Part shown: positions 1 to 16,627 of the stretch, piece by piece
How the letters are laid out: each line of letters opens with the position of its first letter
Numbering within the stretch: the stretch's first letter is position 1
Origin: Acidimicrobiales bacterium
GTDB lineage: Bacteria; Actinomycetota; Acidimicrobiia; Acidimicrobiales; Bin134
DNA length: 64,000 nt
Assembly (NCBI GenBank): GCA_965208505.1
Contig: OZ242339.1
Location: 621,040-685,039 of the forward strand
Direction: 5' to 3'
Notes under the pieces: generated by a model
Told to the model about the DNA's origin: nothing
Database searches by the model: none
The model's input: only the letters and a program-made list of their open reading frames with translations
Program-made: the position numbers and the translations under genes

Positions 1-33
1 AGGAGTCAGCGCTTCTGACCTGTCTGTTTGGCT

Positions 34-1326
34 TCAGTCCCAGGCCACCTGGAGTTCGGTGGGTCCGCGGAAGGTGATGTTGGGGAAGTAGTTCAGTTCT
101 TGGTCGTCCACCAGGCGCAGTGACGGAACTCGCTCGGTTAGGGCTTCGATCACCAGCTGGGTCTCGAACTTCGCGAATTTGGCCCCTAGGCAGTAGTGGA
201 CGCCTTTGCCGAAGGAGATGTGGCGGTTGGCGTTGGGGCGGTGGATGTCGAAGTCGTCGGGGTCGTCCCAGATGTTGTCTTGGCGGTTGGCCGAGGCGAA
301 GTTCATGAGGATGGATGTGCCGGCGGGGATGTCATAGCCGGCGATTTCGGTGTCTTGAGTGGTGATGCGGCGCCAGGAGATCTGGCTGGAGTTGAACCGG
401 AGAACCTCTTCGATGGCGTTGGGGATGAGCGATGGATCGGCGCAGACCTCGGCCCAGACATCCCTGCGGGGAAGCAAGCACAGCAGGGAATTGCAGATCA
501 GCGCGGTGACCGCTTCGTGGCCGGCGAATGAAAGGCCGTAGACCACCGACTCCACCTCCCGGTAGGACATGTCGTCGGGGTTGGCTTCGTGGGCGTCGAT
601 GAGCTCGGAGGCGAAGTCGTCGCCCCGGTTGTCCCGTTTGGAGGCGGTGAATTCGCGACAGTAGCGCCAGTAGGCCAGCATCTGTTCGGCGATGTCGGCT
701 TGCTCGGCGGGGGTGGGCTTGCCCCAGGAGAAGGCCTTGCGGTCGCCGCACCAGTGCTTGAGTGTCTCGTCGTCGCCTTCGGGAAAGCCGATGAAGCGGA
801 AGACCGTCTCGCCGGGCAGGGGGAAGGCGAACGCTTTGACGAATTCTGCGGGCGGTCCGGCTTTGAGCATGGCGTCGATGAGCTGGTTGCTGCGGCGGCG
901 GATGTAGGGCTCGAGAGTTTTGATCCGCTTGTTGGAGAACCCGGCTCGGGTGTAAACCCGGATGCGGCCGTGGTCAGGCTCGGAGCGGTTGGACATGACC
1001 GCCACTGGGTTGAAGTCCTCGGCTGAGAGGATGGCTTGAGCCTCAGGGGCGAGGGGGAAGACCGGGTCCTGCACGTTCACCGATGCGAACGTCTCGTGGT
1101 CGGTGAAGATCTGCTCGATGTCTTCCATGCGGGTCACTACCAGGTAGCCGAGCGTCTCGGCGTAGAACACGCCGTGCTCGTCGCGCAGCGCGGCGGCGAT
1201 GGCGTAGGGGTCGGTGAGGTAGTCGGGGTTGAGGGGGCTCCAGGTGGCGTGTAGGGGGCAGTCCGTCGGGGGCGGGCAGGTCGGTGCGCTGCTGTGGTGG
1301 TAGCTGCGTTTTTCGTCGTCTGACAT
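34..1326 (-). CDS. Cytochrome P450 (CYP116-like heme domain, no fused reductase)
   Basis: Heme motif FGKGVHYCLG, ExxR (EEVLR), I-helix AGHEAVT, C-terminal NITFRGP. Confidence 0.93.
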   Translation of the reverse strand: MSDDEKRSYHHSSAPTCPPPTDCPLHATWSPLNPDYLTDPYAIAAALRDEHGVFYAETLGYLVVTRMEDIEQIFTDHETFASVNVQDPVFPLAPEAQAILSAEDFNPVAVMSNRSEPDHGRIRVYTRAGFSNKRIKTLEPYIRRRSNQLIDAMLKAGPPAEFVKAFAFPLPGETVFRFIGFPEGDDETLKHWCGDRKAFSWGKPTPAEQADIAEQMLAYWRYCREFTASKRDNRGDDFASELIDAHEANPDDMSYREVESVVYGLSFAGHEAVTALICNSLLCLLPRRDVWAEVCADPSLIPNAIEEVLRFNSSQISWRRITTQDTEIAGYDIPAGTSILMNFASANRQDNIWDDPDDFDIHRPNANRHISFGKGVHYCLGAKFAKFETQLVIEALTERVPSLRLVDDQELNYFPNITFRGPTELQVAWD

Positions 1327-1347
1327 GGCCGAGCGCTCTGCGTGTGG

Positions 1348-2166
1348 TTAGTCGAAGCCCAGCTCGAACGAGCCGAGCGGGCCGAAGTCGAAGCGGAACT
1401 CGTCGCCGGGGCGGATGTCGATGGGGCGGGTGAACGAGCCGGCCAGGATGGTCTGGCCGGTTTCGAGGGTGAGGCCTTGTTCGTGGTAGCGGCGGGCTAG
1501 CCAGGCGATTCCCGCCGCGGGGTGGTCGAGCACGCCGGCGGCGATCCCCGTCTCCTCGATGTTGCCGTTTCGGTAGCCCAGTGCACCGATCCACCGCAGG
1601 TCGATCTCGCGGGGGCCCACCGGGTTCGCCCCGCACACGATGCCGGCGTCGGCGGCGTTGTCGGAGATGGTGTCGATAACGGTGCGGGTGCGGCCGGTCT
1701 CGGGGTCGGTTCGAAAGGAGCGGGCGGCGATGAGCTCGACCGCGGGGCGCACGTAGTCGGTCGCATCGAGCACATCGACAATCGAGAGGTCGGCGCCGGC
1801 GAGGTCGGCGGCGAGCACGAAGGCGAGCTCGATCTCCAGTTTGGGGTCGCAAAAGCGAGAGGCCCGAATGGTGGAGTCGGGCGGGAAGACCATGTCTCGG
1901 GTCAAGAACCCCGAGTCAGGGGTGGCGATGTTCATGGCCGCCTGCATGGCCCGCGATGTGAGCCCGATCTTGTGGCCTACCAACTGCTCATCCCGTTGGA
2001 TCTTGCGTTGAAGCCAGGCGGCTTGCACTTGATAGGCCTCGTCGATGGTCATGTCGGGGTAGACCGAGGTTGTCTGGCGGACCTGGGTGGCGGTGCCCTC
2101 GGCCCGATCGAGCAGGGCAGCCTCGGCCTCGATCTGGTCGCGAGTGAGCGGCGCCGAGCTGGTCAT
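1348..2166 (-). CDS. hpaH: 2-oxo-hept-4-ene-1,7-dioate hydratase
   Basis: GHKIGLTSRAMQ, EIELAF, DTISDNAA, ILAGSFTRP motifs; hpa gene context. Confidence 0.9.
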   Translation of the reverse strand: MTSSAPLTRDQIEAEAALLDRAEGTATQVRQTTSVYPDMTIDEAYQVQAAWLQRKIQRDEQLVGHKIGLTSRAMQAAMNIATPDSGFLTRDMVFPPDSTIRASRFCDPKLEIELAFVLAADLAGADLSIVDVLDATDYVRPAVELIAARSFRTDPETGRTRTVIDTISDNAADAGIVCGANPVGPREIDLRWIGALGYRNGNIEETGIAAGVLDHPAAGIAWLARRYHEQGLTLETGQTILAGSFTRPIDIRPGDEFRFDFGPLGSFELGFD

Positions 2167-2660
2167 GAGGCGGCTTCCTCGACGTCGTCGACGGTTGCCT
2201 CCAGTTGGGCCAAGTCGTGGAGCTCGTGCAGAAGATGGGCAAGGCGTTCGGAGCCGAACTCGGCCTCGATGGCGTTGTACCTCTGTTCCGACTCGGGGGC
2301 AATGGTGCTGACCAGTTCAGCACCCTTTGAGCTGAGGGTGATGAGCGACCGGCGCTGGTCCGAGCTGTGGGGGTGGCGATTGATCAGCCCGTCGTTTTCC
2401 AGCTTGGCCAAGATCCGGGACAGGCTGGGGGCTAGCAAGATCGCCCGCTCGGCCAGCTCGCTGACCTCGAGCGGATCGGAGGCGGCGATCAGGGAGCGGA
2501 GCACTCGCCACTGCTGTTCGGTCAGCCCGTAGTCGGCCAGCATGGGTCGGAACAATCGCATAGTGGCCTCCCGGGCCCGAAGTAGCGTGATGGGAAGCGA
2601 CTCAGAGAACGGCCGCATGGCCGGCGAAGCGTGTCCGGGTACCGAGGAGAGGCGGCTCAT
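2163..2660 (-). CDS. hpaR: MarR-family homoprotocatechuate regulator HpaR
   Basis: C-terminal part of ORF 2163..3329: SLPITLLRAREATMRLFRPMLADYGLTEQQWRVLR; ATG at 2660 overlaps upstream TGA (ATGA). Confidence 0.88.
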   Translation of the reverse strand: MSRLSSVPGHASPAMRPFSESLPITLLRAREATMRLFRPMLADYGLTEQQWRVLRSLIAASDPLEVSELAERAILLAPSLSRILAKLENDGLINRHPHSSDQRRSLITLSSKGAELVSTIAPESEQRYNAIEAEFGSERLAHLLHELHDLAQLEATVDDVEEAAS

Positions 2661-3556
2661 TGGGGAAGCGGGGGGTTTGGGGCCGTGTCTGGTGGTCCGG
2701 GCGGGAACTCGTCGGCGATGGTGTTGCGCAGCGTGCCGATCTCGGGGACGCACACCTCGACCACGTCGCCGGGTTCCAGCCAGATGGGAGGGTCGAAGTG
2801 GGCGCCGGCTCCGGTCGGCGTCCCGGTGAAGATCACATCGCCGGGGCACAGGGTGGTGAAGGTGGACAGGTAGTGGATCTGATAGGCGATGGAGTACTTC
2901 ATGGTGGCGGAGGTGTCGTCTTGGCGCAGTTCCCCGTTGACTCGGGTGGTGAGGCGGAGCTGCTCGAGATCGCCGAATTCGTCGATGGGCACCAGCCACG
3001 GGCCAAGCGCCCCCGACGCTTCCCAATTCTTGCCTTGAGTGACGTTGAACTTGGCGTGGCGTGCCCAGTCTCGGATGGTGCCCTCGTTGCCCAAGGTGAG
3101 GCCGGCGATGTGGCGGCGGGCCTCGGAGACGGGGATCCGGCGCCCGGCCTTCCCGATCACCGCCACGATCTCCCCTTCGTAGTCCAGTTGGCGGCTTTCC
3201 GGCGGGCGGACCAGCGGGCGCTGGTGCCCGGTGAAGGAGTCGGGAAACCGGATGAACACCGACGGATAGGCGGCGTCGGCCTGGTCGGCGTATTCGGCGG
3301 CCCTCCCGCCGTAGTTCACGCCGACGCACAGGATCTTTCCCGGCCAGGGGATGAGCCGTTCAAATGTGATGTCGTCCGCGGCGTGGTCTCCGGTGTCTCC
3401 GGCGTGGGAACGGGCCTCGTCGATCCGGCCGGCGGCAATCAGCTCTTTGAGGTCGGCGATGTCGGGCATCCGGAGGCCAAGATCGACGACCCCTTCGCTT
3501 CCCATCACACCGAAGGTGGCTTGGCCGTTGATCGAATATGACAGGAGACGGGTCAT
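2657..3556 (-). CDS. Fumarylacetoacetate hydrolase family protein (HpaG-like isomerase/decarboxylase)
   Basis: KILCVGVNY, LDYEGEI, GKNW, PGDVIFTGTP motifs. Confidence 0.88.
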   Translation of the reverse strand: MTRLLSYSINGQATFGVMGSEGVVDLGLRMPDIADLKELIAAGRIDEARSHAGDTGDHAADDITFERLIPWPGKILCVGVNYGGRAAEYADQADAAYPSVFIRFPDSFTGHQRPLVRPPESRQLDYEGEIVAVIGKAGRRIPVSEARRHIAGLTLGNEGTIRDWARHAKFNVTQGKNWEASGALGPWLVPIDEFGDLEQLRLTTRVNGELRQDDTSATMKYSIAYQIHYLSTFTTLCPGDVIFTGTPTGAGAHFDPPIWLEPGDVVEVCVPEIGTLRNTIADEFPPGPPDTAPNPPLPQ

Positions 3557-3598
3557 CAGGCTCCGATCTGGACCGGCGGCCCAATTGCGACGCGCGAG

Positions 3599-3618
3599 AT
3601 AGTGAACATGTTAACCAT
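3599..3618. promoter_or_regulatory. Palindromic operator, probably bound by HpaR
   Basis: ATAGTGAACATGTTAACCAT, near-palindrome with perfect AACATGTT core, AT-rich, between the divergent hpa arms. Confidence 0.6.
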
Positions 3619-3666
3619 TTGGATAGGATGGGGACAACACCGGCCATCCGTTGCGGGGACAGGCTC

Positions 3667-4053
3667 ATGCCTCACATCATCATCGAGCATTCAGCGAACG
3701 TGGGTGAGCACCACGACATCGACGCTTTAGTTGCCGCGGTGCATTCTGCTGCTCTGGAGAACGGGCTGCCCTCGCTGCCCTCGTTGCGGACTCGCGCGGT
3801 GTCTCGACAGCACTTCCGCATCTCTACCGGTGATCCCGGTTTTGGTTTCGTGGCCATTACCTGCCGCATTGCACCAGGTCGCGGCGCTGAAGCAAAGCAG
3901 TCGTTTCTCAAGCAAGTGCTTGATGCCGCAGAAGGCCAGGTGATGTCAGAGGGCTGTCCGCTGCATATCGCCTGGTCGATAGAGGTCACCGAGGTTGATC
4001 CCAAATTCAGAATCAATCGCAACCATGTCCGCGATGCATTGGGTGGCATCTGA
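3667..4053 (+). CDS. hpaF: 5-carboxymethyl-2-hydroxymuconate isomerase
   Basis: Starts MPHIIIEHSAN (tautomerase Pro-1), LRTRA; directly upstream of hpaE. Confidence 0.85.
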   Translation: MPHIIIEHSANVGEHHDIDALVAAVHSAALENGLPSLPSLRTRAVSRQHFRISTGDPGFGFVAITCRIAPGRGAEAKQSFLKQVLDAAEGQVMSEGCPLHIAWSIEVTEVDPKFRINRNHVRDALGGI

Positions 4054-5582
4054 TGTCCGGACCTGACCACACGTTTCAGGAGAACGTCGAGGCGGCACAA
4101 CGACATCTCGGCCGGTTCTCGGAGGCACCCTTGCCCCACATGATCGGGACCGACACCCCGATGTCGGTTTCGGGAAAGACCTTCGCCAACACATCCCCGA
4201 TCGACGGCCAGCCCCTTGGCGCGGTCGCGGCAGGAGACGCTGGCGACATCGACGCCGCCGCGCGGGCCGCGGTGGAGGCCTTCGGCTCATGGAGTACCAC
4301 TCCGGGGACCGAGCGCAAACGGATCCTCCACCGGGTCGCCGACCAGATTGAGGAGCGAGCCCACCAGATCGCGGTTACCGAGTGCGTGGACACCGGTCAG
4401 ACCATTCGCTTCATGTCTTCAGCCGCACTTCGAGGTGCGGAGAACTTCCGATTCTTCGCCGACCAAGCGCCCAGCGCGGCCGACGGGCTGTCGCTGCCGT
4501 CGGCCGATCACATCAACTACACGACCCGCCATCCCATCGGTCCAGTGGGCGTCATCACCCCGTGGAACACCCCTTTCATGCTGTCCACCTGGAAGATCGC
4601 CCCCGCGCTGGCTGCCGGTTGCACCGTGGTCCACAAACCGGCCGAATGGAGCCCCCTTACTGCTCATCTGTTGGCCGAGGCGGCGCTCGAGGCAGGATTG
4701 CCTCCCGGCGCCTTGAACGTGGTGCACGGGATGGGCGAAACCGCGGGCAAGGGCCTCACCGAGCATCCGGCCATCAAGGCCATCGCCTTCGTGGGGGAAT
4801 CGGCAACCGGCTCGCTCATCCAGGCCCAGGGGGCTCCCACACTGAAGCGGTTGCACTTCGAGCTTGGGGGCAAGAACCCGGTGATCGTCTTCGACGATGC
4901 CGACCTCGAACGGGCTCTGGACGCAGTGATATTCATGATCTACAGCCTCAACGGCGAGCGGTGCACAAGCTCGTCGCGGGTGTTGATCCAAGAGTCGATC
5001 TATGACCAGTTCACCTCCCGGATCGCCGACAAGATCAGCAGCGTGCCGGTCGGACATCCCCTCGACCCCGCCGCAGCAGTCGGCCCCCTCATCCATCCCC
5101 GCCACCATCAAAAAGTGTGCAGTTACCTGGATATCGCAGTTGCCGACGGAGCCACTGTTATTGAGGGCACGCCCTGGGAGGAAGCGCCCGCTGGAGGAAA
5201 CTGGGTGGCGCCCATGCTGTTCACCGGCGCACGCTCCCACATGCGCGTCGCCCAGGAGGAGATCTTCGGCCCGGTGCTCACCGCCATCCCGTTCTCTAAT
5301 GAGGCCGATGCTGTGAAAATCGCCAATGACGTGCCCTACGGCTTGGCCGGCTACATCTGGACCCGCGATGTCGGCCGAGCCCATCGGGTGGCCAATGCGC
5401 TCGACGCGGGCATGATCTGGGTGAACAGCCAGAACGTCCGCCATCTCCCCACCCCGTTCGGCGGGACCAAGGCATCGGGGGTTGGCCGCGACGGGGGCGA
5501 TTGGAGCTTTGACTTCTACATGGAGACCAAGAACATCTCCGTGGCCCTGGACACGCACACCATCCCCAAATTGGGGGGTTGA
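4053..5582 (+). CDS. hpaE: 5-carboxymethyl-2-hydroxymuconate semialdehyde dehydrogenase
   Basis: ITPWNTPFMLSTWK, ELGGKNP, SLNGERCT, NSQNVRHLPTPFGG. Confidence 0.93.
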   Translation: MSGPDHTFQENVEAAQRHLGRFSEAPLPHMIGTDTPMSVSGKTFANTSPIDGQPLGAVAAGDAGDIDAAARAAVEAFGSWSTTPGTERKRILHRVADQIEERAHQIAVTECVDTGQTIRFMSSAALRGAENFRFFADQAPSAADGLSLPSADHINYTTRHPIGPVGVITPWNTPFMLSTWKIAPALAAGCTVVHKPAEWSPLTAHLLAEAALEAGLPPGALNVVHGMGETAGKGLTEHPAIKAIAFVGESATGSLIQAQGAPTLKRLHFELGGKNPVIVFDDADLERALDAVIFMIYSLNGERCTSSSRVLIQESIYDQFTSRIADKISSVPVGHPLDPAAAVGPLIHPRHHQKVCSYLDIAVADGATVIEGTPWEEAPAGGNWVAPMLFTGARSHMRVAQEEIFGPVLTAIPFSNEADAVKIANDVPYGLAGYIWTRDVGRAHRVANALDAGMIWVNSQNVRHLPTPFGGTKASGVGRDGGDWSFDFYMETKNISVALDTHTIPKLGG

Positions 5583-5587
5583 CGAGC

Positions 5588-5980
5588 ATGAGCCTCTACT
5601 ACGTGCAGAAGTTCCTGTATCAGCTCAACCGCGACCAGGCAGTGCAGGACGCCTACCGCGACGATCCCCGCGGAGTGCTGGCCGGCTTCGAGTTGACCGA
5701 CCAGGAGATCGGCGCTCTTGTCGCCCCCGACATCGGCCTTCTGTTCGTGTTGGGGGTGAACGGCCAGATCCTCATGCACTTCGCCGCCTTCCACCAGATC
5801 AGCTGGGCCGATTATCTCCAGCGGATGCGAGACGGCATCGCCGAGCACGGGCCCGTGAGGGAAGGGGTCTACGCGATGACAGGCTACGAGGGTGTGGATG
5901 CCCACGCCGCCGCCATCGGCCAAACAACCAGGGCGGTCCGCGGCGCTGGCAGCCCCGGAGCAGAAAGTATGCAGAAGTGA
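5588..5980 (+). CDS. Aromatic ring-opening dioxygenase small subunit (LigA-like)
   Basis: MSLYYVQKFLYQLNRD...FELTDQE...LGVNGQILMH; overlaps the LigB-like start. Confidence 0.75.
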   Translation: MSLYYVQKFLYQLNRDQAVQDAYRDDPRGVLAGFELTDQEIGALVAPDIGLLFVLGVNGQILMHFAAFHQISWADYLQRMRDGIAEHGPVREGVYAMTGYEGVDAHAAAIGQTTRAVRGAGSPGAESMQK

Positions 5981-6825
5981 CCCTGGTCTACGCAGGGGCG
6001 GCCAGCCACGCCCCTGGGATCACCGGGCGGGCTGAACAGGCCGACGTCGAAGTACGCGACGCCTTCTACACCGCCTACGACGACATGAGATCGGCCATTG
6101 AGGCCAGCGGTGCCGAAGCGATGATCGTGGTCGCCGCCGAGCACTTCGCCAACTTCTTCATGGACAACATGCCCAGCTTCGCCCTGGGAATGGCCGATTT
6201 CTACGACGGCCCCATCGAAGACCCGTCCTGGCTGGGAATCGACCGGTTCCGGGCGCCGGGCGACCGGGAACTGTCGCAGCGGCTCATCTCCGAGGTCATG
6301 CAGACCGTAGACGTGGCCTACGCCGAGGAGTGGAAATTCGACCACGGCATCGCCGTGCCCCTGCACTTCCTCACTCCCCGTTTCGACATGCCGATAGTCC
6401 CGGCCAACATCAACTGCCAGGGCCCTCCGCTGACACCGCTTCACCGTGCATGGGCCTTCGGCGAAGCCCTCCGGCGAGCGGCCGACTCAGTGCCCGAGAA
6501 GATCGCCCTGGTCGGAACCGGCGGCATCTCCCACTGGCCGGCCACTCCTGATTCCGGCAAGATCAACGAGGCTTGGGACCGCGAGTTCCTGGATCGGTGG
6601 CAGCGAAACGACCGCGGGTCGCTGCTCGGCTACGACGACGAGTCGGTGTACGCGCAAGCCGGTCAGGGCGGTTTCGAGATACGCACTTTCGTCGCGGTCA
6701 GCGCCGCAGCCGGAGGCGCTACCGGCACCGTCCACTTCTACGCCCCGATCCCGATCTTCGCGGTCGGCTGCACCGTGGCCTCCTACGACCTGCCGCCCAG
6801 CGATCCGGCGCCCAAATCGCCCTGA
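5977..6825 (+). CDS. Class III extradiol dioxygenase catalytic subunit (LigB-like)
   Basis: SHAP, EHFANFF, FDHG, GTGGISHWP, GGFEIRT; GTG at 5977 overlaps upstream TGA. Confidence 0.88.
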   Translation: MTLVYAGAASHAPGITGRAEQADVEVRDAFYTAYDDMRSAIEASGAEAMIVVAAEHFANFFMDNMPSFALGMADFYDGPIEDPSWLGIDRFRAPGDRELSQRLISEVMQTVDVAYAEEWKFDHGIAVPLHFLTPRFDMPIVPANINCQGPPLTPLHRAWAFGEALRRAADSVPEKIALVGTGGISHWPATPDSGKINEAWDREFLDRWQRNDRGSLLGYDDESVYAQAGQGGFEIRTFVAVSAAAGGATGTVHFYAPIPIFAVGCTVASYDLPPSDPAPKSP

Positions 6826-6833
6826 GGGGCGGC

Positions 6834-7733
6834 TCACAAGTCGGCCAGGGGGGACCGGTCTGTGCCGTCGAGGGTGATGGCGCCGTCGGGCAGCACCGAG
6901 ACTTCGTGCCAGAGGCGGAGCTGGATCTGGCCTCCGAGCTCGCCGACCATCGCCAAGAACGAGTCGAAGATGGCCAGGTGCGTCGGGTGGGAGCGGGACC
7001 ATGCCTCCAGTGAGGCCAAATCCCGGAACCACCCCACGAAGCTGGTGGATTCCAAGTCCTCGCCGTCGAGGGTCTGCTCTTGGAGGAAACGGCTGGACAG
7101 ACATCCGGTGCCTGGATTTCTGGACAGGAACTCGATGCCTGCGGCCAAGTTGGGGGCCACTTGCTCAAAGTACAGGCGGCGCTCTTTGTCGCCGCAGTGG
7201 CGCCAGATCTGCCCTGACCGGATGAGGCACAGGTTGGCGGGCAGGGGCGACGCCGCTTCGGCGGCGAGATCTGAGCCGGCGCTGGCCGGGATCCGGTCGC
7301 GGGCCGCGCCCCAGTACTCGTGGACATCGGTGGGCTGTACCGGGCTGAGATTCCGCACTCCCGGGGTTGCCTCCCCGGTGGAGTGCAGCGTCTCCCACCG
7401 GTCTGCGGGAATGGTCGCGGCCTCTTCTAGCACCCCGGGCAAAGACATCGCTGCTTTGACGTCGGCGCGCTCCCGCCAGCGGCGGTAGGCGCCGGGGTCT
7501 TTCCAGTAGCCGAGAAACACCGCAGTGGGAACCTCCTCGTTTGCTACTCGGGCCCGCTCCAGGTGCGAGGGCGTGTCGTCGCCGGTGGTGAGCGCCACCC
7601 GCATCTGCGACGCCGCGGAGGCCGAATCCGGGTTTCGGGCGAACAACATGGAGTAGACGGTCGCTTCAGGGAGTCCGACCGCGGTCCAAGCGGGCGCCTG
7701 CGGGGTGTGGCCTTCTGGTCGGTTGGCGGTCAT
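6834..7733 (-). CDS. oxd: Heme-dependent aldoxime dehydratase (phenylacetaldoxime dehydratase family)
   Basis: HEYWGAARDR, LIRSGQ, HPTHLAIF and LRLWHEVSV match the Oxd Arg/Ser/His/His catalytic motifs. Confidence 0.85.
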   Translation of the reverse strand: MTANRPEGHTPQAPAWTAVGLPEATVYSMLFARNPDSASAASQMRVALTTGDDTPSHLERARVANEEVPTAVFLGYWKDPGAYRRWRERADVKAAMSLPGVLEEAATIPADRWETLHSTGEATPGVRNLSPVQPTDVHEYWGAARDRIPASAGSDLAAEAASPLPANLCLIRSGQIWRHCGDKERRLYFEQVAPNLAAGIEFLSRNPGTGCLSSRFLQEQTLDGEDLESTSFVGWFRDLASLEAWSRSHPTHLAIFDSFLAMVGELGGQIQLRLWHEVSVLPDGAITLDGTDRSPLADL

Positions 7734-8497
7734 CGGCCCTCCTTGGCTCTGCCTTTGCGGCTGTTGGGATCGGCAGCGGTTGTCTCAGTCTCGCCGAGAT
7801 AGGCCGCCTGGAGCCGCTCCGGCTGGCTGCGCACCTCGCCGGCCCGGCCCTGGAGCACGATCGCTCCTTTTGCCAGCACGGCGGCTTGGTGGCCGAACGC
7901 CAGGGCGCGGTCGGCAAACTGCTCGACAAGCAGCACCCCGATCCCGTCAGCGGCCATGTCGGCGACCGCGGCCAGCATCCGATCGACGATGGCGGGGGCC
8001 AATCCCAACGACAGCTCGTCGATCAGCAGCACGCGGGGCCGCTGCAATACCGCCCGCCCCAGCACGACCATCTGCTGCTCGCCCCCCGACAGGCTTGCCG
8101 CTTTGACTGCGGCGCGGCTCCGCAACTCGGGAAACAGGTCGAATGCCTGACGCGGCCGGCGCGCGGCGACGAGGAAGTTCTCCTCCACGGTGAGGCTGGG
8201 GAACACCGTCCGGCCCTGCTGGACATAGGACATCCCGAGAGCCACCCGCCGCCGCCGGGAGAACCGGGTGATGTCGATACCGCCGAAGAGCACCCGGCCC
8301 CTGCTGGGGGGGACAACGCCGCTGATGCCGTCCAACAGAGTGGACTTGCCCATGCCGTTCGCGCCCAACAGCACCGTCACCTCTCCAGCTTGCACAGCCA
8401 AGTCCACTCCCCGGACGACCGGCTGGCCCAACCGGTCGACTTGCAGCTCCTCGACACTGAGAACCGCTTGGGGGGCCGGGGCTGCTGGCAGGGTCAC
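7730..8497 (-). CDS. Branched-chain-type ABC transporter ATPase (LivF-like)
   Basis: GANGMGKST, LSGGEQQ, LLIDE; GTG at 8497 overlaps upstream stop. Confidence 0.9.
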   Translation of the reverse strand: MTLPAAPAPQAVLSVEELQVDRLGQPVVRGVDLAVQAGEVTVLLGANGMGKSTLLDGISGVVPPSRGRVLFGGIDITRFSRRRRVALGMSYVQQGRTVFPSLTVEENFLVAARRPRQAFDLFPELRSRAAVKAASLSGGEQQMVVLGRAVLQRPRVLLIDELSLGLAPAIVDRMLAAVADMAADGIGVLLVEQFADRALAFGHQAAVLAKGAIVLQGRAGEVRSQPERLQAAYLGETETTAADPNSRKGRAKEGR

Positions 8498-10227
8498 GAT
8501 GCCTTCCCCAGATAGGCGGCCACCACTTCGGGATTGGACAGGACTTCCGAAGGGGTGCCGGATGCTATGACCCGGCCGAAGTCCAGCACGATCGCGGTGT
8601 CGCACAGCGAGGCCACCACGTCCAAGTCGTGCTCGATCAACAACACCGCGGTGCCCAGGGTGGTCGGGACCTGGGCGAGGGCGTCGACGAATCGATCCCT
8701 TTCGTGTCCGGCCAGCCCGGCGACGGGCTCGTCCAGCAGTACGGCTTTGGGACGGGAGACGACCGCGCCGCACACCTCCAAGACCCGCCGAGAACCCACA
8801 TCCAAAGCGGCGACCGGAGTAGAGGCGGGCGGAAGGGAGAACCACGAGACCGCCTCTTCGACCGGCAGCCCGGAGCCGGAACCGGCGAGGTCCAGATAGC
8901 CGCCCACGGTCAGGTCTCGGGGGGTGAGGCCCTGCTGGAAGGTCCGCCGCATGCCCATCCGGGCCCGTTTGCGGGGTGGCAGCGAGGAAATGTCGGTCCC
9001 GTCGAGCGAAACCTGCCCCTGGTTGCTGGCGAGAAAGCCGCTCACGATGTCGACCAACGTCGACTTGCCGGCGCCGTTGGGGCCGATCACGCCGACGAAC
9101 CGCCCCTCGGCCACCGTCAAGCTGACATCGTCGAGGGCCTTCACCGCGCCGTAGGACACAGAGATGTTCTGGATGTCGAGCATTGGGCCGTCCCCGCGAA
9201 GCCGCGACAGCCGGCACGCCGGGAGGGGGCTGGCGGCCGTGCTGCGGTCGGGTGTTTCGCGGGGACGGCCCAGCCGGCTGACGAAGGCTCGCAGGGCGGC
9301 CGACAAGCCGTCCTCGCCCTGGCTCAGCGCCAATACGCCTCCGACGGCGAAGATCATGGGGGCGATGTCTTGGGGAAGCCCGAGATCGCTGAGGAAATTG
9401 GGGATCAGGCGGCCGAAAAGCCCGGCAAGCAAAGCACCCTCGAAGTGGCCGGCGCCGAACATGAGCGCCGACGTCAATATGGTCATGGACTCGATCGGCT
9501 GGAAGCTCGCCACGCTCACGATCCCGTGGAGCGCGACCAAAAGGGCGCCTCCGAGCCCGGCGATGGCCGCGCTGACTGCGAAAGCAGACAGCTTGGTCCT
9601 AACCACGCTGCGGCCCATGGCCGCGGTGGCCCGCTCGCTGCGCCGAACCGAGAACCACCACCTCCCGGTACGGGAGCGGCGCAGCACGGCCACCGCCAAG
9701 CCGACAAGCCCGAGCAGCGCCGCGCAGAAAAGGAAGAACCCGGATTCGCTGCTGGCGAAGCCCGGGGGGCGCACCCTGTTGCCCTCGATCAGGCCGGGGA
9801 AGCCGTCGGCGAACACGACCCGGGCCACTGCCGCGCTGAACACCAGAGTGAACACGGCCAAGTTGAGCCCGCGGAGTCGCAACGCGGGGATCCCCACCAA
9901 TATCCCCGCGGCGAACGGGACAAGAGCGGCCAGCGGCAGCATGGCCAGATAGGGAAGCGACGTCTTCAGGTTCAGCCATCCGACCGTCCATGCCCCCATT
10001 CCCGCGAACGACATCTGGCACAACGACAGCAGCCCGGCATTGTCGTAGATCACCCCGACGCTCACCGCCACCACTGCTGTGATGAGCGCGCTGGTCAGCA
10101 AGAACAGCCAGAACGGATTCGCCGACCCTGCTATCGCGACGGCAGCGGCCACATACAGGGCCGCGGCGACCAGGTCGCCGCGCCGGATGCCGAGGGGCGC
10201 AGACCAGGCGAAGTCAGCGCGCCGCAT
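8494..10227 (-). CDS. ABC permease-ATPase fusion (LivM/LivG-like)
   Basis: Hydrophobic N-terminal half (PALRLRG) plus GPNGAGKST and LLDEP. Confidence 0.9.
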   Translation of the reverse strand: MRRADFAWSAPLGIRRGDLVAAALYVAAAVAIAGSANPFWLFLLTSALITAVVAVSVGVIYDNAGLLSLCQMSFAGMGAWTVGWLNLKTSLPYLAMLPLAALVPFAAGILVGIPALRLRGLNLAVFTLVFSAAVARVVFADGFPGLIEGNRVRPPGFASSESGFFLFCAALLGLVGLAVAVLRRSRTGRWWFSVRRSERATAAMGRSVVRTKLSAFAVSAAIAGLGGALLVALHGIVSVASFQPIESMTILTSALMFGAGHFEGALLAGLFGRLIPNFLSDLGLPQDIAPMIFAVGGVLALSQGEDGLSAALRAFVSRLGRPRETPDRSTAASPLPACRLSRLRGDGPMLDIQNISVSYGAVKALDDVSLTVAEGRFVGVIGPNGAGKSTLVDIVSGFLASNQGQVSLDGTDISSLPPRKRARMGMRRTFQQGLTPRDLTVGGYLDLAGSGSGLPVEEAVSWFSLPPASTPVAALDVGSRRVLEVCGAVVSRPKAVLLDEPVAGLAGHERDRFVDALAQVPTTLGTAVLLIEHDLDVVASLCDTAIVLDFGRVIASGTPSEVLSNPEVVAAYLGKAS

Positions 10228-11071
10228 CCCACACCTCGTGGCGCTGGGTCCACAACAACACGGCCAGCGCGATCAAGAATGGGACCGCCCCCCGGTATTC
10301 GGCCCAAGTCGGCCGGTACGAAGACACCGCTTCGACGACTCCGACCAGCACGCCGCCCACCAGCGCCAAAGACAGGTTCCTAAACGCCCCTATCAGCGCA
10401 GCGGCCATGGCGGGGAAGATGAGAAAGCCCAAGCTGGAGAAACTCCCCGGCAAGTTCGAGGCCACCACGATCATTCCCACCGCTGACACCAGGCCGGTGA
10501 ACCCCCACACCAGCGCGGTCCGGGCGAACAGCGGAACGCCGAGCAATTCGGCCACCACCGGCAGCTCGGAGATGGCTCTGACCTGTGTGCCCACCCGGGT
10601 GGACGACAGCACCCATCCCATCACCAAGACGGTGGCCGAAGCCACGAGCAAAACGATCACCGTCCCAGCAGTCACGACCACCCCGCCCACGGTGATGGAC
10701 GCGCTGGGAAAGATCACCGGCACGCTGCGGGGAGTGTCGCTGAAAAAGCGGAACCCCACAGCGAACAGCCCCACGGTGACTGCGATCATGGCGCCGGTGC
10801 GGACCGCCCCGTCGGCCTCGCCGAACAGCCGGGCGAACATCAGCCCCACTGCCACAGAGATCACCGCCGACAGGGCCACTCCAGCCGCCGCCGCGGGAAG
10901 GAAATCCCAGCCGCGGTCGTACATGACAGCGGCGAAGTACGCGCCGAACGCGCCCACGACGGCTTGGCTGAAGTTCACCACACCGGCCATGCGATGGAGC
11001 ACGACGATGCTCACCCCGAAGATCGCGTAGGCGCCGCCCGCCGCGAGCCCGGCTACCACCAAGGTGAGCAT
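10214..11071 (-). CDS. ABC permease (LivH-like)
   Basis: GVVNFSQ motif, multiple TM segments. Confidence 0.88.
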   Translation of the reverse strand: MLTLVVAGLAAGGAYAIFGVSIVVLHRMAGVVNFSQAVVGAFGAYFAAVMYDRGWDFLPAAAAGVALSAVISVAVGLMFARLFGEADGAVRTGAMIAVTVGLFAVGFRFFSDTPRSVPVIFPSASITVGGVVVTAGTVIVLLVASATVLVMGWVLSSTRVGTQVRAISELPVVAELLGVPLFARTALVWGFTGLVSAVGMIVVASNLPGSFSSLGFLIFPAMAAALIGAFRNLSLALVGGVLVGVVEAVSSYRPTWAEYRGAVPFLIALAVLLWTQRHEVWDAAR

Positions 11072-11090
11072 CCGCCGCCTCCAGGCTGCC

Positions 11091-12410
11091 TCAGCCGGGG
11101 AGGATGACCCAGTCGTCGGCCACGGTCACCCACTCACCGTCTCTCAGCTCGACGAACTTCGATGCCTGGTTGGGAGCGTGGGTCTCGCCCGGGCCGAAGG
11201 TGTAGGGCGTGCCCAGCAGGGGAGTCTCATAGGGCTCCAGGGCTCGCATCGCCTCGCCAACCGATTCTCTGGTGATCTCCCCGTCGATGCCCCGCAACGC
11301 CTCGACGAAGATGGTGGCTGCTATGTAGCCGCCTTGGGCGAACGACGTGAGCGGCACTCCGGTGTCGGTCATGAGCGACCGCCAGTCGTCCAACACGGGA
11401 GAGTCCGACCCGTACGGCTCGAATTCCGAGTTGGCCCGCAGCCCATTGCCGGCGCTTCCGAGCTGAGAGGCGATCGAGTCGGTGTAATACGAGGTGAGGC
11501 CGATCCAGATGATGTCGGACAGGCCCTGGGACTCGATGGCCCGGCCCACCGCTAGGGCGTGGGGCTCGACGCCGTCGATCACCACCGCGTCGCACCCGGC
11601 GTCGCGGGCTTGCAGCATGAGCGGCGTGGGATCGTCTTCCAGCGTAGCGGCTCCGACCCTCAAGGTGAGGGTCTTGCCGGTGAGCGCTTCCCAGCGCTCC
11701 ACTGCCGCGTCGAATGCCGGCGCCAAATCGGGTATGACGAAGAGGTTGACGTTGCAGACGTCTTCCAGCCCGAGGGTCTCGGACGCGTAGTAGAGGGACA
11801 CGGTGATCCCGGCATACGGACCGGTGTTGACCGGGGAGATATTCGACGACAAAAAGCAAAGCGGGTCCACTCCCGTGCCCTGGATCGCATGCACGCCCTT
11901 TTCGGCATAGAAGGCCGAGTTGACCGCGCACTCCAGCGTGCTGGCCGAGCCGACCATGGCGACAACATCGTCCTGCTCCACCAGTTTGCGGCCCGCGGTG
12001 GCCGCGCCTTCGGGAGTGCCCGCGTCGTCTTCGATGATCAGCTGGATCGGACGACCGTCGATTCCGCCGCTGGCGTTCACCCGGTCGAATACCGCCTTTG
12101 CCGCCACGGACGCCTCTGGAAACAGTGCGCCGCCGGTGAGCGAACTCACATTTCCCACCTTGATGGGCTCGCCGGTCGCCTCAACAGGAGTGTCAGCGGG
12201 CTCCTCAGTCGCCGCGGGCTCCCCAGTCGCCGCTGGTGCCTCAGTGGCCGCTGGCGCTTCGGTAGCAGCGGGCGCGTCGGCGGCGGCAGCGGCCGGCTGT
12301 TCAGCGGCGGCCGCATCGGGGTCGTCATCGTCGTTGCCGCAGGCCGACGCCACCAGCACAAGAGCCAGCAGCGTTGCCAGCAGCACGAGCAGCTTTGAAC
12401 GGTTCTTCAT
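11091..12410 (-). CDS. ABC substrate-binding lipoprotein (LivJ/K-like)
   Basis: Lipobox ASAC, ATEAP low-complexity linker, VNASGGIDGRPI. Confidence 0.9.
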   Translation of the reverse strand: MKNRSKLLVLLATLLALVLVASACGNDDDDPDAAAAEQPAAAAADAPAATEAPAATEAPAATGEPAATEEPADTPVEATGEPIKVGNVSSLTGGALFPEASVAAKAVFDRVNASGGIDGRPIQLIIEDDAGTPEGAATAGRKLVEQDDVVAMVGSASTLECAVNSAFYAEKGVHAIQGTGVDPLCFLSSNISPVNTGPYAGITVSLYYASETLGLEDVCNVNLFVIPDLAPAFDAAVERWEALTGKTLTLRVGAATLEDDPTPLMLQARDAGCDAVVIDGVEPHALAVGRAIESQGLSDIIWIGLTSYYTDSIASQLGSAGNGLRANSEFEPYGSDSPVLDDWRSLMTDTGVPLTSFAQGGYIAATIFVEALRGIDGEITRESVGEAMRALEPYETPLLGTPYTFGPGETHAPNQASKFVELRDGEWVTVADDWVILPG

Positions 12411-13486
12411 GGGTTCCTCCCGGAGTCGGTTGAGTTGGATTGGCTTTGTTCTTCGAGGTCTCCGCTGTCGTGGCCGGCCCGTGCGGGGCCGGGTGCGTCG
12501 TCGTTGGCTCCGACCATCTCCACAGCGGGTTGCGGCCGCCTGTCCAGCAGCAGCCGAGTGACATCAGGGCGCGAGTAGTGGCCGCTTGGATCAGCTGCGG
12601 CTTTGGCCAAGGGGATCAGCGACAAGTCAATCTCGGCATAGACGATCCCCTCGGTGTGCTCATCGATCAGATTGGAGATGACCTGGCCGTCGGGTGCGAA
12701 CACGCGGCTGCACCCCCCGCCCCCGCCCCCCAGCAGCGCGGCCTGCTCGTCGGTCTGGGCGAACAACTCCATTCCCGCAGGCCCCGTCACTGTGGTGGCC
12801 GCGAGCACAAACGACGATCCCTCGACCGCGTAGACCTGGGTGGCCGCCATGTTGACCTCTTCGCCCAGCGCATAGGCCCCGCCCCTGTAGAGGCAAAACG
12901 AAGGCCAAGAGGCAACATGGACCTGCTCGCCCTGGCTGTACATCGCGAACTTGGTGAGCGGCTGGAGGTGTTCCCAGCAGTTGAGCGCCCCGAGCCGTCC
13001 GATTCCCTCGACTTCGCCGACATGCAAGTGGCTGCCGTCCCCCTCGCCGAACAGCGCCCGCTCCACATGAGTGGGCTTGAGCTTGCGTCGGGTGAACAGG
13101 ACATCCCCGGTCGCGCCGAACCCGAACTGGGCCATATAGAGCGACCCGTATTCCCTCTCGCTGGCCCCGACAACCACGTTGATCTCGTTGTCTGCCGCCG
13201 CCTTGGCCAGACGGTCGAACCCAGGGCTGCCGACCACGAGGGAGTTCTCGTGATACCGGGGAACGAATTGCATGCCCCACGCCTGCGGGCCCAACCACAA
13301 GAAGTGGGGATACCCGGGAATCCAGATCTCCGGGAAAGCCAGAAGCCTGGCTCCGTTGGCGGCAGCCTCCGAGATCAGAGCCACCGCCTTTTCGACTCCA
13401 GCGTCGGCGTCGAGCCAACAGGGCTCAGACTGCACAGCGGCGGCAACAAACGGCTCGGGAGTGGTCATGGGTTGTTCCTCCGACAT
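12407..13486 (-). CDS. nit: Nitrilase (branch 1)
   Basis: E-K-C triad: FPEIWIPGYP, RRKLKPTHVER, LNCWEH; also DPSGHYSRPDV. Start could be 13468, 13486 or 13510. Confidence 0.92.
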   Translation of the reverse strand: MSEEQPMTTPEPFVAAAVQSEPCWLDADAGVEKAVALISEAAANGARLLAFPEIWIPGYPHFLWLGPQAWGMQFVPRYHENSLVVGSPGFDRLAKAAADNEINVVVGASEREYGSLYMAQFGFGATGDVLFTRRKLKPTHVERALFGEGDGSHLHVGEVEGIGRLGALNCWEHLQPLTKFAMYSQGEQVHVASWPSFCLYRGGAYALGEEVNMAATQVYAVEGSSFVLAATTVTGPAGMELFAQTDEQAALLGGGGGGCSRVFAPDGQVISNLIDEHTEGIVYAEIDLSLIPLAKAAADPSGHYSRPDVTRLLLDRRPQPAVEMVGANDDAPGPARAGHDSGDLEEQSQSNSTDSGRNP

Positions 13487-13638
13487 CGACGGCCCACGCG
13501 AGAAATGCAAGCGAAGTCATTGCCCCTCATAGCGTTGAAGGTAAGACTTGGTCCCTCCTGGTTGCTTCCCTGCCAGCGTGTAGTCTCTTGTCTCTCAGCG
13601 CACCCTTCGACCGAAGCGGAGGGCAGGGGACACAGATC

Positions 13639-14583
13639 GTGAGCATTTCGGCCAACACCGAAGAGGTAAACCCTCGAGAGCGATTCGACTTCTGGCACGA
13701 GGTGATCTGTACCGCCTACGTCCGCCTGGAAGCCGAGACACTGCCGTCGGAGAATCCATTTCACGCTGAGATCGCAATAGCTGAGATGGGCCCGCTCACG
13801 CTAAGCCGGGTTCGGTCCGAACCCCATGCGGTGCAGCGCTCCCCGGCACTAATCGGCGCAGAACCCCGAGACGAAGTGCTCGTCTCCGTCCAACTTCGCG
13901 GTGAAGCCGTCGTGCAACAGGACGACCGCCAAGCGATCCTGCGACCCGGCGATTTCGCGATGTACGACACCACCCGCCCCTACGACCTCATCATGAAAGA
14001 GCAGTTCGAGATGCTGGTGCTGCAATTCGACCGCCAATTTCTGACCGAGCGCTGTCCTTCCCCCGAGCACCTGACCGCCATCCGGATGGCCAACGACAGC
14101 AAGGTGACCGCCCCCGTGTCCTCTTTCCTGCGGTCGCTGGAGCCAATCGCCCTCGGCGAGGACAACGCAGTCTCCCGCCAACTCGCAAACAGCGCATTAG
14201 ACCTCTTGGGGGTGGCAATCGCCGACCAAATCGGCAGCGATAGCTCAAGGGCAAAGCACACGCAGCATTTCCTCAGAGCGTGCACCTACATCAACGCATA
14301 CGCATCCGACCCAGACCTCACACCCGCGAAGATCGCCTCAGCAGTGGGGATATCAGCCCGCTACCTCCACGCGATATTCAAAGAACACGGCATGACGGTC
14401 AACCGCTACCTGATCAAGCGGCGCCTCGCCCGATGCCACGACGACCTCTTGAGCCCCAACGCAGCATCACGCACAATCACCGAGATCGCCCACATGAACG
14501 GATTCAAGACTTCAGCTCACTTCTCCCGCAGCTTTTCTGAGGCCTATGGCGCAACTCCCAGCGAGATCAGGAAAAAGGCCTGA
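13639..14583 (+). CDS. AraC-family activator (NitR/FeaR-like)
   Basis: ERFDFWHEVIC, PGDFAMYD, C-terminal TITEIAHMNGF..SAHFSRSF; divergent from the nitrilase. Confidence 0.9.
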   Translation: MSISANTEEVNPRERFDFWHEVICTAYVRLEAETLPSENPFHAEIAIAEMGPLTLSRVRSEPHAVQRSPALIGAEPRDEVLVSVQLRGEAVVQQDDRQAILRPGDFAMYDTTRPYDLIMKEQFEMLVLQFDRQFLTERCPSPEHLTAIRMANDSKVTAPVSSFLRSLEPIALGEDNAVSRQLANSALDLLGVAIADQIGSDSSRAKHTQHFLRACTYINAYASDPDLTPAKIASAVGISARYLHAIFKEHGMTVNRYLIKRRLARCHDDLLSPNAASRTITEIAHMNGFKTSAHFSRSFSEAYGATPSEIRKKA

Positions 14584-14641
14584 GGGACAGGCGTTGAGAG
14601 ATCGACGTCAGACCTAGCGTGGGGAGGTCTGGCCGAGTCCT

Positions 14642-15061
14642 TTAGGGGCGCACGGCGAATGCTCGTCGGCGTTGGGGGCCGTAGCGGTATATCCGGAAGT
14701 CGGCGTCGAAGGCGAGTGCGTCGACTATTGACAGGCGCCCCATGATCGCCCAGCTGATGAGATCGGTCAGCGAGAACGCTTGGTCGCCGAATGCCTCCAC
14801 AGCGGAGTTAGCGGCGTCGAGGTCGGCGTTGGTGGCGCACTCGACGCGGGCGACGGCCGAGACGGCTTCGACAACCCGGTTGGCGGTGAGGAAGTCGGTG
14901 CGGGCATTCACAAGATTCCACAGCTCTCCAAGGACTAAGTCGCTGGTCACCAGGGAACTGGCGTGCTCTGTTAGCAGCGACTGGGCGACTCCGCGGTCGG
15001 CGTCGCTGTCGTCAGCGGCGGCATACCAGATGCTGGTATCCACGAATACCGGCGCCGTCAC
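14642..15061 (-). CDS. vapC: PIN-domain VapC toxin
   Basis: VFVDTSIWYA, FSLTDLISWAIM, ALAFDADF. Confidence 0.85.
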   Translation of the reverse strand: MTAPVFVDTSIWYAAADDSDADRGVAQSLLTEHASSLVTSDLVLGELWNLVNARTDFLTANRVVEAVSAVARVECATNADLDAANSAVEAFGDQAFSLTDLISWAIMGRLSIVDALAFDADFRIYRYGPQRRRAFAVRP

Positions 15062-15234
15062 TACTGTCCCTTGGCTGAGAGTTGCTTGACGATGGACTCG
15101 CTGATCATTGCCTGCTTGCCCTCGGCTATCTTCGACCCCCCGCTGTCGAAGAGTCCGAAAACCGAGCGCGGGTCGACATAGGGTGCGACCTGGTCGAGGT
15201 CGCGGGCCACTTGCCGCCCAATGCACTCCGACAT
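15061..15234 (-). CDS. Small antitoxin-like ORF (57 aa), possibly 5'-truncated
   Basis: My translation: MSECIGRQVARDLDQVAPYVDPRSVFGLFDSGGSKIAEGKQAMISESIVKQLSAKGQ; stop overlaps the vapC GTG; shorter than any ORF in the track. Confidence 0.6.
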   Translation of the reverse strand: MSECIGRQVARDLDQVAPYVDPRSVFGLFDSGGSKIAEGKQAMISESIVKQLSAKGQ

Positions 15235-16518: not shown

Positions 16519-16627
16519 GACGGCTGTCCTTTGCTGCGATCGTTTGGCGGGTGTCGGCCAGTGTATGGGATCGTCCGATGCGACAAGATACCGAGGTGCG
16601 AAGCGACCGGGAACCAGTGAGGTGGCG

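Follow-up and report, generated by a model that had tools for sequence, protein, structure and literature searches.

Gene content of the island

We analyzed a stretch of 64,000 nucleotides (hereafter the window; G000:C1:621040-685039, GenBank contig OZ242339.1) from the genome of an Acidimicrobiales bacterium (G000; 4.0 Mb in one contig, ~65% G+C). At positions 34-14583 it carries a 14.6 kb island that combines an aldoxime dehydratase (Oxd) and a nitrilase with an importer of the ATP-binding cassette (ABC) type and with genes for aromatic ring cleavage. Genes were called by Pfam and NCBIfam profile scans together with start-codon checks. The island consists of 15 genes, closely packed into four transcription units, which we describe as an upper and a lower block.

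In the upper block, the gene for a FeaR-like AraC-family regulator (13588-14583, +; PF14525 and PF12833; best NCBIfam match FeaR, 157 bits, cut-off 199) is divergent from an operon that we call the nit operon. It begins with the nitrilase (12407-13510, -; PF00795, E 8.2e-47, 160 bits), continues with the four genes of a Liv-type ABC importer and ends with the 299-aa Oxd (6834-7733, -; PF13816, E 3.5e-59). The importer comprises a substrate-binding lipoprotein of the Peripla_BP_6 type (11091-12410, -; PF13458, E 1.3e-50), a LivH-like permease (10214-11071, -; PF02653, E 8.6e-18), a fusion of a LivM-like permease with a LivG-like ATPase (8494-10227, -; PF02653, PF00005 and PF12399) and a LivF/UrtE-like ATPase with a GTG start (7730-8497, -; PF00005; UrtE 175 bits and LivF 149 bits, both below cut-off). 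Neighboring genes overlap at four of the five junctions in this operon (by 4, 14, 4 and 4 nt), the remaining junction being a 19-nt gap.

The lower block consists of two divergent units. The first contains a putative HpaF, a 5-carboxymethyl-2-hydroxymuconate isomerase (CHMI; 3667-4053, +; PF02962, E 7.7e-22; start MPHIIIEHS), HpaE, a 5-carboxymethyl-2-hydroxymuconate semialdehyde dehydrogenase (4053-5582, +; TIGR02299, 771.5 bits, cut-off 638), and the LigA-type small subunit (5579-5980, +; PF07746, E 2.6e-10) and LigB-type catalytic subunit (5977-6825, +; PF02900, E 4.3e-32) of a class III extradiol dioxygenase. The second contains an HpaG-like protein of the FAH family, a candidate OPET decarboxylase/isomerase (2657-3556, -; PF01557, E 5.3e-66), HpaR, a MarR-type regulator of homoprotocatechuate degradation (2163-2660, -; TIGR02337, 153.4 bits, cut-off 121.2; also matched by the MarR Pfam family), HpaH, a 2-oxo-hept-4-ene-1,7-dioate hydratase (1348-2166, -; TIGR02312, 364.4 bits, cut-off 351.5) and, as its last gene, a cytochrome P450 that we call P450a (34-1326, -; PF00067, E 5.9e-27). 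Junctions within these units are overlaps of 1, 4, 4, 4 and 4 nt and one 21-nt gap, and the convergent LigB and Oxd genes lie 8 nt apart.

An earlier note on this DNA, made from the sequence alone, had described a packed operon of nitrilase, ABC and Oxd genes with mostly overlapping junctions, divergent from an AraC gene and abutting hpaRHFE, a FAH protein, LigAB and a P450. The observation is real, because the profile scans and start-codon checks give the same gene map. All the genes it named are present. The grouping of the hpa genes as one unit has to be replaced by the two divergent units described above, and the island includes neither HpaI nor HpaBC.

The upper block encodes an aldoxime dehydratase, a nitrilase and an importer

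Oxd scored 201 bits against PF13816 (cut-off 25). Its best NCBIfam score was to the OxdA equivalog ('aliphatic aldoxime dehydratase'), at 156 bits against a cut-off of 600, and thus it is not an OxdA equivalog. The closest PDB sequence was that of OxdB, a phenylacetaldoxime dehydratase (7f2y, E 1.9e-54). An AlphaFold2 (AF2) model of Oxd (pLDDT 85.5, pTM 0.86) gave, in a Foldseek search, a TM score of 0.89 to OxdB and of 0.80-0.84 to OxdRE and OxdA (TMq 0.81 and 0.80, respectively), with the next fold at 0.30. The motifs SHPTHL, LWHEV, IRSGQ and ARDR align with their counterparts in OxdB and OxdRE, and residues H249, H252, H276, R145 and R147 are invariant in an alignment of 21 sequences; presumably these positions provide the proximal heme histidine, the distal catalytic histidine and the pocket serine and arginine, as in OxdRE and OxdA. 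Judging from sequence and model, the enzyme looks functional and would be predicted to catalyze the heme-dependent dehydration of aldoximes to nitriles.

The nitrilase carries FPE, RRKLKPT and NCWEH motifs, which make up the Glu-Lys-Cys triad, and matched the solved nitrilases 22sf, 6zby and 8uxu at E ~1e-101. Its top PDB matches, which differ in specificity, score alike (E 1e-103 to 1e-101). By these features the protein is assigned to the true nitrilases, branch 1 of the CN-hydrolase superfamily, and alignment with relatives indicates that its true start is probably the ATG at 13486 or 13468.

In the binding lipoprotein, a Pro/Ala/Thr-rich linker comes after the lipobox LVASAC. No other protein of the island is as well conserved: identity over the mature domain is 97% within the genus, falls to 81-88% in other families and is 59-64% for the Dactylosporangium and Streptomyces proteins; for Oxd, identity between families is only 62-67%. 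Its sequence matches in PDB were weak (best 4kv7, E 3.7e-15).

The lower block encodes a probable homoprotocatechuate pathway with a P450 and LigAB

HpaE, HpaH and HpaR all score above their NCBIfam equivalog cut-offs, and with the start codon chosen for HpaR, 165 of 165 residues align in relatives. The FAH protein reached 160 bits against TIGR02303, the model for the C-terminal part of HpaG (cut-off 276), in addition to its match to PF01557, and HpaF reached 45 bits against its NCBIfam equivalog (cut-off 215) in addition to its match to the Pfam CHMI family. Within the 110-nt divergent promoter region between the FAH and HpaF genes lies a near-palindrome, TGAACATGTTAA (3603-3614), a candidate HpaR operator. 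It is conserved in an alignment of the window with six congeners, more weakly in one of the loci (L011), and a search at up to 2 mismatches found this one match only in window positions 1-15000.

The LigAB pair takes the place of HpaD and is translationally coupled to HpaE, with LigA overlapping the end of HpaE and the beginning of LigB by 4 nt each. LigB scored 133 bits against PRK13364, which is below cut-off. When aligned by HMMER to the LigB of 1b4u (chain B), whose iron ligands are His/His/Glu, it retains SH..., ...EH, DHG, GTGGISH and E. By this comparison LigAB qualifies as a class III extradiol dioxygenase with its metal-binding and catalytic residues in place, and LigB would be the dioxygenase that cleaves the ring of homoprotocatechuate.

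P450a is a protein of 430 aa with a heme domain only, whose translation contains the heme-cysteine motif FGKGVHYCLG, and it lacks the fused phthalate-dioxygenase-reductase domain that defines CYP116B. The best PDB matches were 5gwe and 5xjn (E 1e-84), both deposited simply as 'Cytochrome P450', while CYP116B46 (6gii and 6laa, identified as such in an excerpt of PMC7260179) and P450 RhF (6ro8) matched at E 3e-73 to 5e-68. P450a is thus best described as a predicted stand-alone, CYP116-like heme-domain P450. The name CreJ was considered for 5gwe but left aside, as an excerpt of PMC10879549 treats 5gwe as a vitamin-D-ligand receptor.

HpaBC is absent from the island, and no match to HpaB_N above cut-off was found across G000 (best 22 bits versus 35); nor were PaaA and PaaC found in a search of that genome. 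The P450 is therefore the only catechol-forming candidate, and the paa route is excluded.

Proposed pathway

We favor, with a probability of roughly 60%, the reading that the cassette runs from an arylacetaldoxime or arylacetonitrile through (4-hydroxy)phenylacetate and homoprotocatechuate to meta-cleavage, with the P450 replacing the absent HpaB. The upper tier would be controlled by the FeaR-like AraC regulator. The Liv-type importer with its lipoprotein would take in an arylacetaldoxime and/or an arylacetonitrile, most likely a tyrosine-derived one with a 4-hydroxyphenyl group; Oxd would convert the oxime to the nitrile, and the nitrilase would convert the nitrile to the arylacetic acid, (4-hydroxy)phenylacetate, plus ammonia.

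The lower tier would be a self-contained, HpaR-regulated module that is widespread in Acidimicrobiales, possibly induced together with the upper one. In place of the missing HpaBC, the CYP116-like P450 would produce 3,4-dihydroxyphenylacetate (homoprotocatechuate), either by hydroxylation or by O-demethylation. The two-subunit LigAB would then open the ring, and HpaE, HpaF, the FAH protein and HpaH would process the cleavage product onward, leaving the last aldolase step to an enzyme encoded elsewhere in the genome.

Linkage of the two blocks in relatives

Within the genus, Oxd was found in 7 of the 36 other genomes searched, and in all 7 the island is complete to the extent that the contigs cover it. 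LigB orthologues were present in 8 of 40 genus genomes, the same 8 as Oxd, and in none of the 29 others searched for both. For the order we used an even sample of 401 genomes, of which 8 (in 3 of 215 genera) carried Oxd.

A quick IQ-TREE phylogeny of 77 Oxd sequences (two rows having been dropped as short or broken) placed the 50 Oxds from sponge-associated Acidimicrobiia in one clade. A 23-row subclade (SH-aLRT 97) has AraC, nitrilase and ABC genes at all 23 loci, and 21 of these have at least one hpa orthologue (at least 50% identity) within 10 kb, the exceptions being L024 and L030. This linkage is conserved across four gene orders and three named families of sponge-associated Acidimicrobiia. 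Layout A is the gene order of the window. In layout B, the hpa block is inverted, with a second AraC gene and an NMO-family gene in between. Layout C reads LigBA-HpaE / AraC / Nit-Oxd-ABC-P450, and layout D reads HpaE-HpaF / FAH ... AraC / Nit-Oxd-ABC-P450, with an IaaH-like amidase; in both of these layouts the P450 gene comes immediately behind the ABC genes, in the same orientation.

Two additional genes recur in these layouts. The first is the pair of a second AraC gene and the NMO-family gene (PF03060, 'nitronate monooxygenase'; L016:10536-12655 in G026, L025:10958-13108, L063:6667-7743 and L135:3465-4466), which is absent from the window; one congener and all 5 layout-B loci have it in the interval separating Oxd from the hpa block. 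The nearest NCBIfam model to the L025 copy is FabK, far below cut-off. Copies with 40% identity occur in 4 layout-D loci, and one with 44% identity stands beside an amidase and AraC-Nit-Oxd in a distant actinobacterium. The recurrence of this gene hints at a role for nitro, nitronate or related N-oxygenated substrates. The second is an arylacetamide-type amidase closest to indoleacetamide hydrolase (IaaH; 436 bits, cut-off 532), which accompanies the island in 4 layout-D loci (L029:5576-7087, L036, L063 and L065).

The sister set of the subclade consists of 25 lone Oxds, mostly from Candidatus (Ca.) Poriferisodalis, which are 55-63% identical to the window Oxd and have none of these neighbors and no nitrilase nearby. 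At one locus with this gene (L046:4909-13259), a gene for a 1180-aa POR+DUF6537 protein, itself preceded by an MFS transporter gene, stands directly before Oxd, which is followed by two genes for pyridoxal phosphate (PLP) enzymes. We take the POR+DUF6537 architecture to resemble that of indolepyruvate/arylpyruvate:ferredoxin oxidoreductase.

The lower block has a much wider distribution. LigB orthologues (66-87% identity) occur in 41 of the 401 order genomes (21 genera; ~10%), and Oxd and LigB were found together only in G000, G007, G018 and G375, the last with a broken Oxd. We fetched 14 of the 38 LigB loci from outside the genus, picked for long contigs. In 12 of these 14, a P450a orthologue lies within the block P450-HpaH-HpaR-FAH / HpaF-HpaE-LigA-LigB, and none of the 14 has nitrilase, ABC or AraC orthologues. 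The P450 is therefore part of a widespread lower module, with AraC-Nit-ABC-Oxd as the accessory, upper one. The only trace of Oxd among the fetched loci is in G375 (L126 ~9848-10339; G375:C6:675848-676339), where 163 aa matched, with one in-frame TAG, beside an intact hpa block; this looks like decay of the upper module with the lower one kept. The two halves of the island are separable evolutionary modules.

Support from outside this clade comes from a Solirubrobacter metagenome-assembled genome (MAG; locus L067, CALMNS010000009.1). Here, genes for a VOC-type extradiol dioxygenase, an Oxd that is 38% identical to that of the window, and a nitrilase are in overlapping reading frames. Their neighbors are HpaB (TIGR02309, 591 bits, cut-off 480), an HpaC-like reductase, HpaE (694 bits, cut-off 638), an amidase and a FAH protein. 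The pairing of Oxd and nitrilase with hpa genes has thus been reached with non-homologous parts, which is the strongest independent support for the linkage of the two blocks. Together with the lack of HpaB, PaaA and PaaC in G000, it makes an aryl, hydroxyphenylacetate-type route, as the earlier note had proposed, the best fit to the context. At another distant Oxd locus (L137:9532-17422, in G483), 25-33% matches to aldehyde dehydrogenase, VOC dioxygenase, FAH and P450 lie within 7 kb of Oxd; at this level of similarity they do not qualify as hpa linkage.

Several findings weigh against the proposed route. Oxd and the nitrilase are equidistant from characterized enzymes that act on aryl and on alkyl substrates, and thus sequence cannot tell their specificity. 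Likewise, the AF2 model of the binding lipoprotein (pLDDT 80) fits binders of amino acids (Leu/Ile/Val) and of aromatic acids (4-hydroxybenzoate/coumarate/vanillate) equally, at TMq 0.62-0.69. No HpaD model is among the NCBIfam matches of LigB, and HpaI is not in the island, four HpcH/HpaI-family genes being located elsewhere in G000. In 37 of the 41 LigB-bearing order genomes, the P450+hpa/LigAB block occurs without Oxd. Among the distant Oxd loci (L067-L095), hpa genes are found at only 1 of 29, and AraC-Oxd-Nit occurs without hpa genes in Streptomyces and others. A sample of the phylum had Oxd in 3 of 401 genomes, and none of the five loci fetched from it has hpa genes (at least 38% identity). 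Finally, the two blocks have separate regulators, AraC and HpaR, and the AraC-nit and hpa promoter regions share no 10-mer operator. A search for sequencing runs listed no RNA run that contains this stretch.

The solitary hpa blocks, the separate regulators without a common operator and the Streptomyces loci would also fit two metabolically unrelated modules that were packaged together, the upper scavenging nitrogen from aldoximes or nitriles of any kind, perhaps aliphatic ones, and the lower degrading hydroxyphenylacetates from other sources. That the best NCBIfam model for Oxd is the aliphatic one points in the same direction, though its score falls far short of the cut-off, as does the different cassette that occupies the same chromosomal slot in G010 (see below), since cargo can therefore assemble opportunistically. 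Nonetheless, we consider unrelated modules somewhat unlikely. The presence of hpa genes within 10 kb at 21 of 23 clade loci, through four gene orders and three families, argues for a functional connection, as do the position of the P450 directly behind the ABC genes in layouts C and D and the Solirubrobacter locus, where the same pairing is built from a non-homologous HpaB and VOC-type dioxygenase. Moreover, no other arylacetate route is evident in G000. The synteny of oxd and nit with ligAB and hpaE, which the earlier note had suggested examining across genomes, thus holds for the upper block, whose clade keeps hpa genes nearby despite the rearrangements, and fails for the lower block, which mostly stands alone.

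The IaaH-like amidase of layout D raises the question of whether the upper block processes indole-3-acetaldoxime and indole-3-acetonitrile to indole-3-acetate (IAA), and an excerpt of PMC8955678 considers the formation of IAA through Oxd and nitrilase in bacteria associated with plants. Such a role is very improbable here, as this amidase is absent from the window and the linked lower pathway is of the homoprotocatechuate type rather than one for indole or IAA.

Cassette boundaries and insertion site

We compared five congeners by blastn with the window plus 15 kb upstream. Only window positions 14/25/34 to 14598/14607 aligned, i.e., the segment bounded by the P450a stop codon and a point ~15 nt beyond that of AraC, so that the island limits first proposed, 34-14583, coincide with those of a discrete cassette. 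The congener flanks are unrelated and represent four different contexts. Among 10 flank open reading frames (ORFs) scanned in congeners G018, G034 and G007, no integrase or transposase was found, and the genes there are ordinary ones. The island is a discrete cassette found in differing chromosomal contexts.

Genomes without the island show the site in its empty state. In G001, G021 and G022, the flanking genes (87-96% protein identity) are 2.1-2.6 kb apart, versus 16.2 kb in G000, and in G001 and G022 position -538/-534 relative to the window is joined straight to 15188/15189 (blastn). By these junctions, G000 therefore has ~15.7 kb extra, made up of the island, ~570 bp and a PIN-domain gene (14642-15226, -; PF01850, E 1.3e-07) that lies outside the conserved cassette; the inserted segment, absent from G001 and G022, extends from ~537 nt before the window to 15188. 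The junction shows a 3-nt ACC microhomology only, with no 10-nt direct or inverted repeats. In the layout-D relative L063, a DDE transposase gene lies within the island.

The same chromosomal slot holds other cargo in other genomes. G010 carries a different uptake/catabolism cassette of 13.7 kb there (L132:1932-15539), with an M20 peptidase, a class-III aminotransferase, an ABC importer of the SBP_bac_8/BPD_transp_1 type with a TOBE-domain ATPase, and also TetR, GNAT, a DprA-like protein and a PIN gene, and in G019 the slot holds 7.3 kb (L133:1669-8912). Genes of toxin-antitoxin type flank the island in the window: the PIN gene and, 5 kb further, a HipA kinase gene (19555-21042, +).

Sponge-associated hosts and candidate substrates

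The nearest Oxd loci belong to Ca. Poriferisocius, of the family Ca. Hopanoidivoransaceae, and more distant ones to Ca. Poriferisodalis and Ca. Aldehydirespirator. These genera were reportedly named by Nguyen et al. in 2023, and the species name 'catecholifindens' suggests that catechol cleavage was noticed there. According to an excerpt of PMC12263773, species of these genera were named from sponge MAGs, and PMC11706023, in the portion consulted, includes sponge-symbiotic lineages in Poriferisodalaceae and Aldehydirespiratoraceae. By this indirect evidence the lineage of G000 is sponge-associated, the setting in which the earlier note had suggested sponge metabolites as substrates.

With such hosts, the natural substrates could be bromotyrosine-derived oximes and nitriles of the sponge (of the psammaplin, bastadin or aeroplysinin type), which would be detoxified or eaten. 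The rarity of Oxd elsewhere (8/401 in the order, 3/401 in the phylum) is compatible with this, and an excerpt of PMC3766881 describes an aeroplysinin-1-specific nitrile-converting activity of unknown origin in Aplysina. Nonetheless, we regard bromotyrosine substrates as improbable: no dehalogenase or O-demethylase is among the annotated island genes, unless the P450 does that job, and nothing in the island favors halogen chemistry. Furthermore, aeroplysinin-1 is not an aromatic phenylacetonitrile, and the carriers come from several isolate series. Bromotyrosine alkaloids are also reported, in an excerpt of PMC8547014, to be independent of microbiome architecture.

A broader possibility, which we consider unlikely, is a horizontally shared cassette in sponge-symbiont Acidimicrobiia for eating tyrosine oximes and nitriles derived from the host, with brominated defence metabolites perhaps among them. 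The P450 would then be a new hydroxyphenylacetate 3-hydroxylase, O-demethylase or oxidative dehalogenase that feeds a LigAB-type homoprotocatechuate dioxygenase. If true, the symbiont would gain nitrogen (as ammonia) and carbon, and toxic nitriles would be cleared from the holobiont.

Relation to known systems

Work on the aldoxime-nitrile pathway has centered mainly on bacteria from soil or associated with plants, and the pathway described there stops at the carboxylic acid. In Bacillus sp. OxB-1, phenylacetate is formed from Z-phenylacetaldoxime by AraC-nit-oxd, with aldoxime as the inducer (PMC4342420); the same pathway is treated in a part of PMC8955678. The OxB-1 and Bradyrhizobium clusters (AraC/NitR-nitrilase-Oxd) share with the island the same three clustered genes, and OxdB is the nearest solved relative of its Oxd. 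They differ from it in three respects. Four ABC genes stand between nit and oxd here; the Oxd here is short (299 versus ~350 aa) and 34% identical; and the island has a link to ring cleavage, which is not described in the two papers, PMC8955678 mentioning neither a transporter nor homoprotocatechuate in the portion consulted. In the Rhodococcus and Pseudomonas clusters, Oxd is likewise coupled to nitrile hydrolysis (PMC8955678, in part), but through nitrile hydratase and amidase rather than a nitrilase; an amidase accompanies the island only in the layout-D relatives.

The lower block resembles the hpa/hpc pathway of E. coli and Burkholderia xenovorans LB400 (excerpt of PMC3053370) in its HpaE, HpaH and HpaR equivalogs, its putative HpaF and its HpaG-like FAH protein. 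In contrast to that pathway, it contains a CYP116-like P450 and no HpaBC, and a two-subunit LigAB with no HpaD match, and HpaI lies outside the cluster. The Solirubrobacter locus is similar to the island in joining Oxd and nitrilase to 4-hydroxyphenylacetate/homoprotocatechuate genes, but has HpaBC rather than a P450, a VOC-type dioxygenase rather than LigAB, and a GntR regulator. No ABC importer is among its annotated genes, and we found no published description of it.

The AraC-nit-oxd trio and the hpa pathway are thus each already known. A literature search, outside Nguyen et al. 2023 and supplements, found no description of an ABC importer inside a nit-oxd operon, of a nit-oxd operon joined to a ring-cleavage pathway, or of a P450/LigAB form of the hpa pathway. 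The combined architecture, which is real and kept across rearrangements in relatives, is therefore apparently undescribed, in agreement with the earlier note.

What is new here is the joining of the aldoxime-nitrile pathway to an importer and a complete-looking route of aromatic ring cleavage, and its occurrence in uncultured sponge symbionts, where it forms a discrete cassette that moves from one chromosomal context to another. If the proposed pathway holds, aryl oximes and nitriles would be a currency or a hazard inside sponges, and the island would offer concrete genes to probe on sponge nitriles and oximes. It would also suggest that the homoprotocatechuate pathway has a variant that depends on a P450 and is based on LigAB. 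The short-form Oxd with its nitrilase may also be of interest for cyanide-free nitrile chemistry.

Other genes beside the island

On the AraC side of the island, positions 16499-19051 (+) hold an 850-aa ORF with two CoA_transf_3 stretches, which may be a fusion or two genes for family III CoA-transferases; the opposite strand has an overlapping 432-aa ORF with no family match. A second P450 gene, P450b, lies at 15247-16707 (-), and three P450 genes are present within 21 kb here; a further P450 gene region was noted at L017:9177-10508 (-). Fusions of P450 with GPP34 are specific to sponge symbionts according to an excerpt of PMC11706023, and P450b has no GPP34 Pfam match. P450 genes are very numerous in this genus, with 19-27 matches to P450b (E <=1e-40) in each of five congeners.

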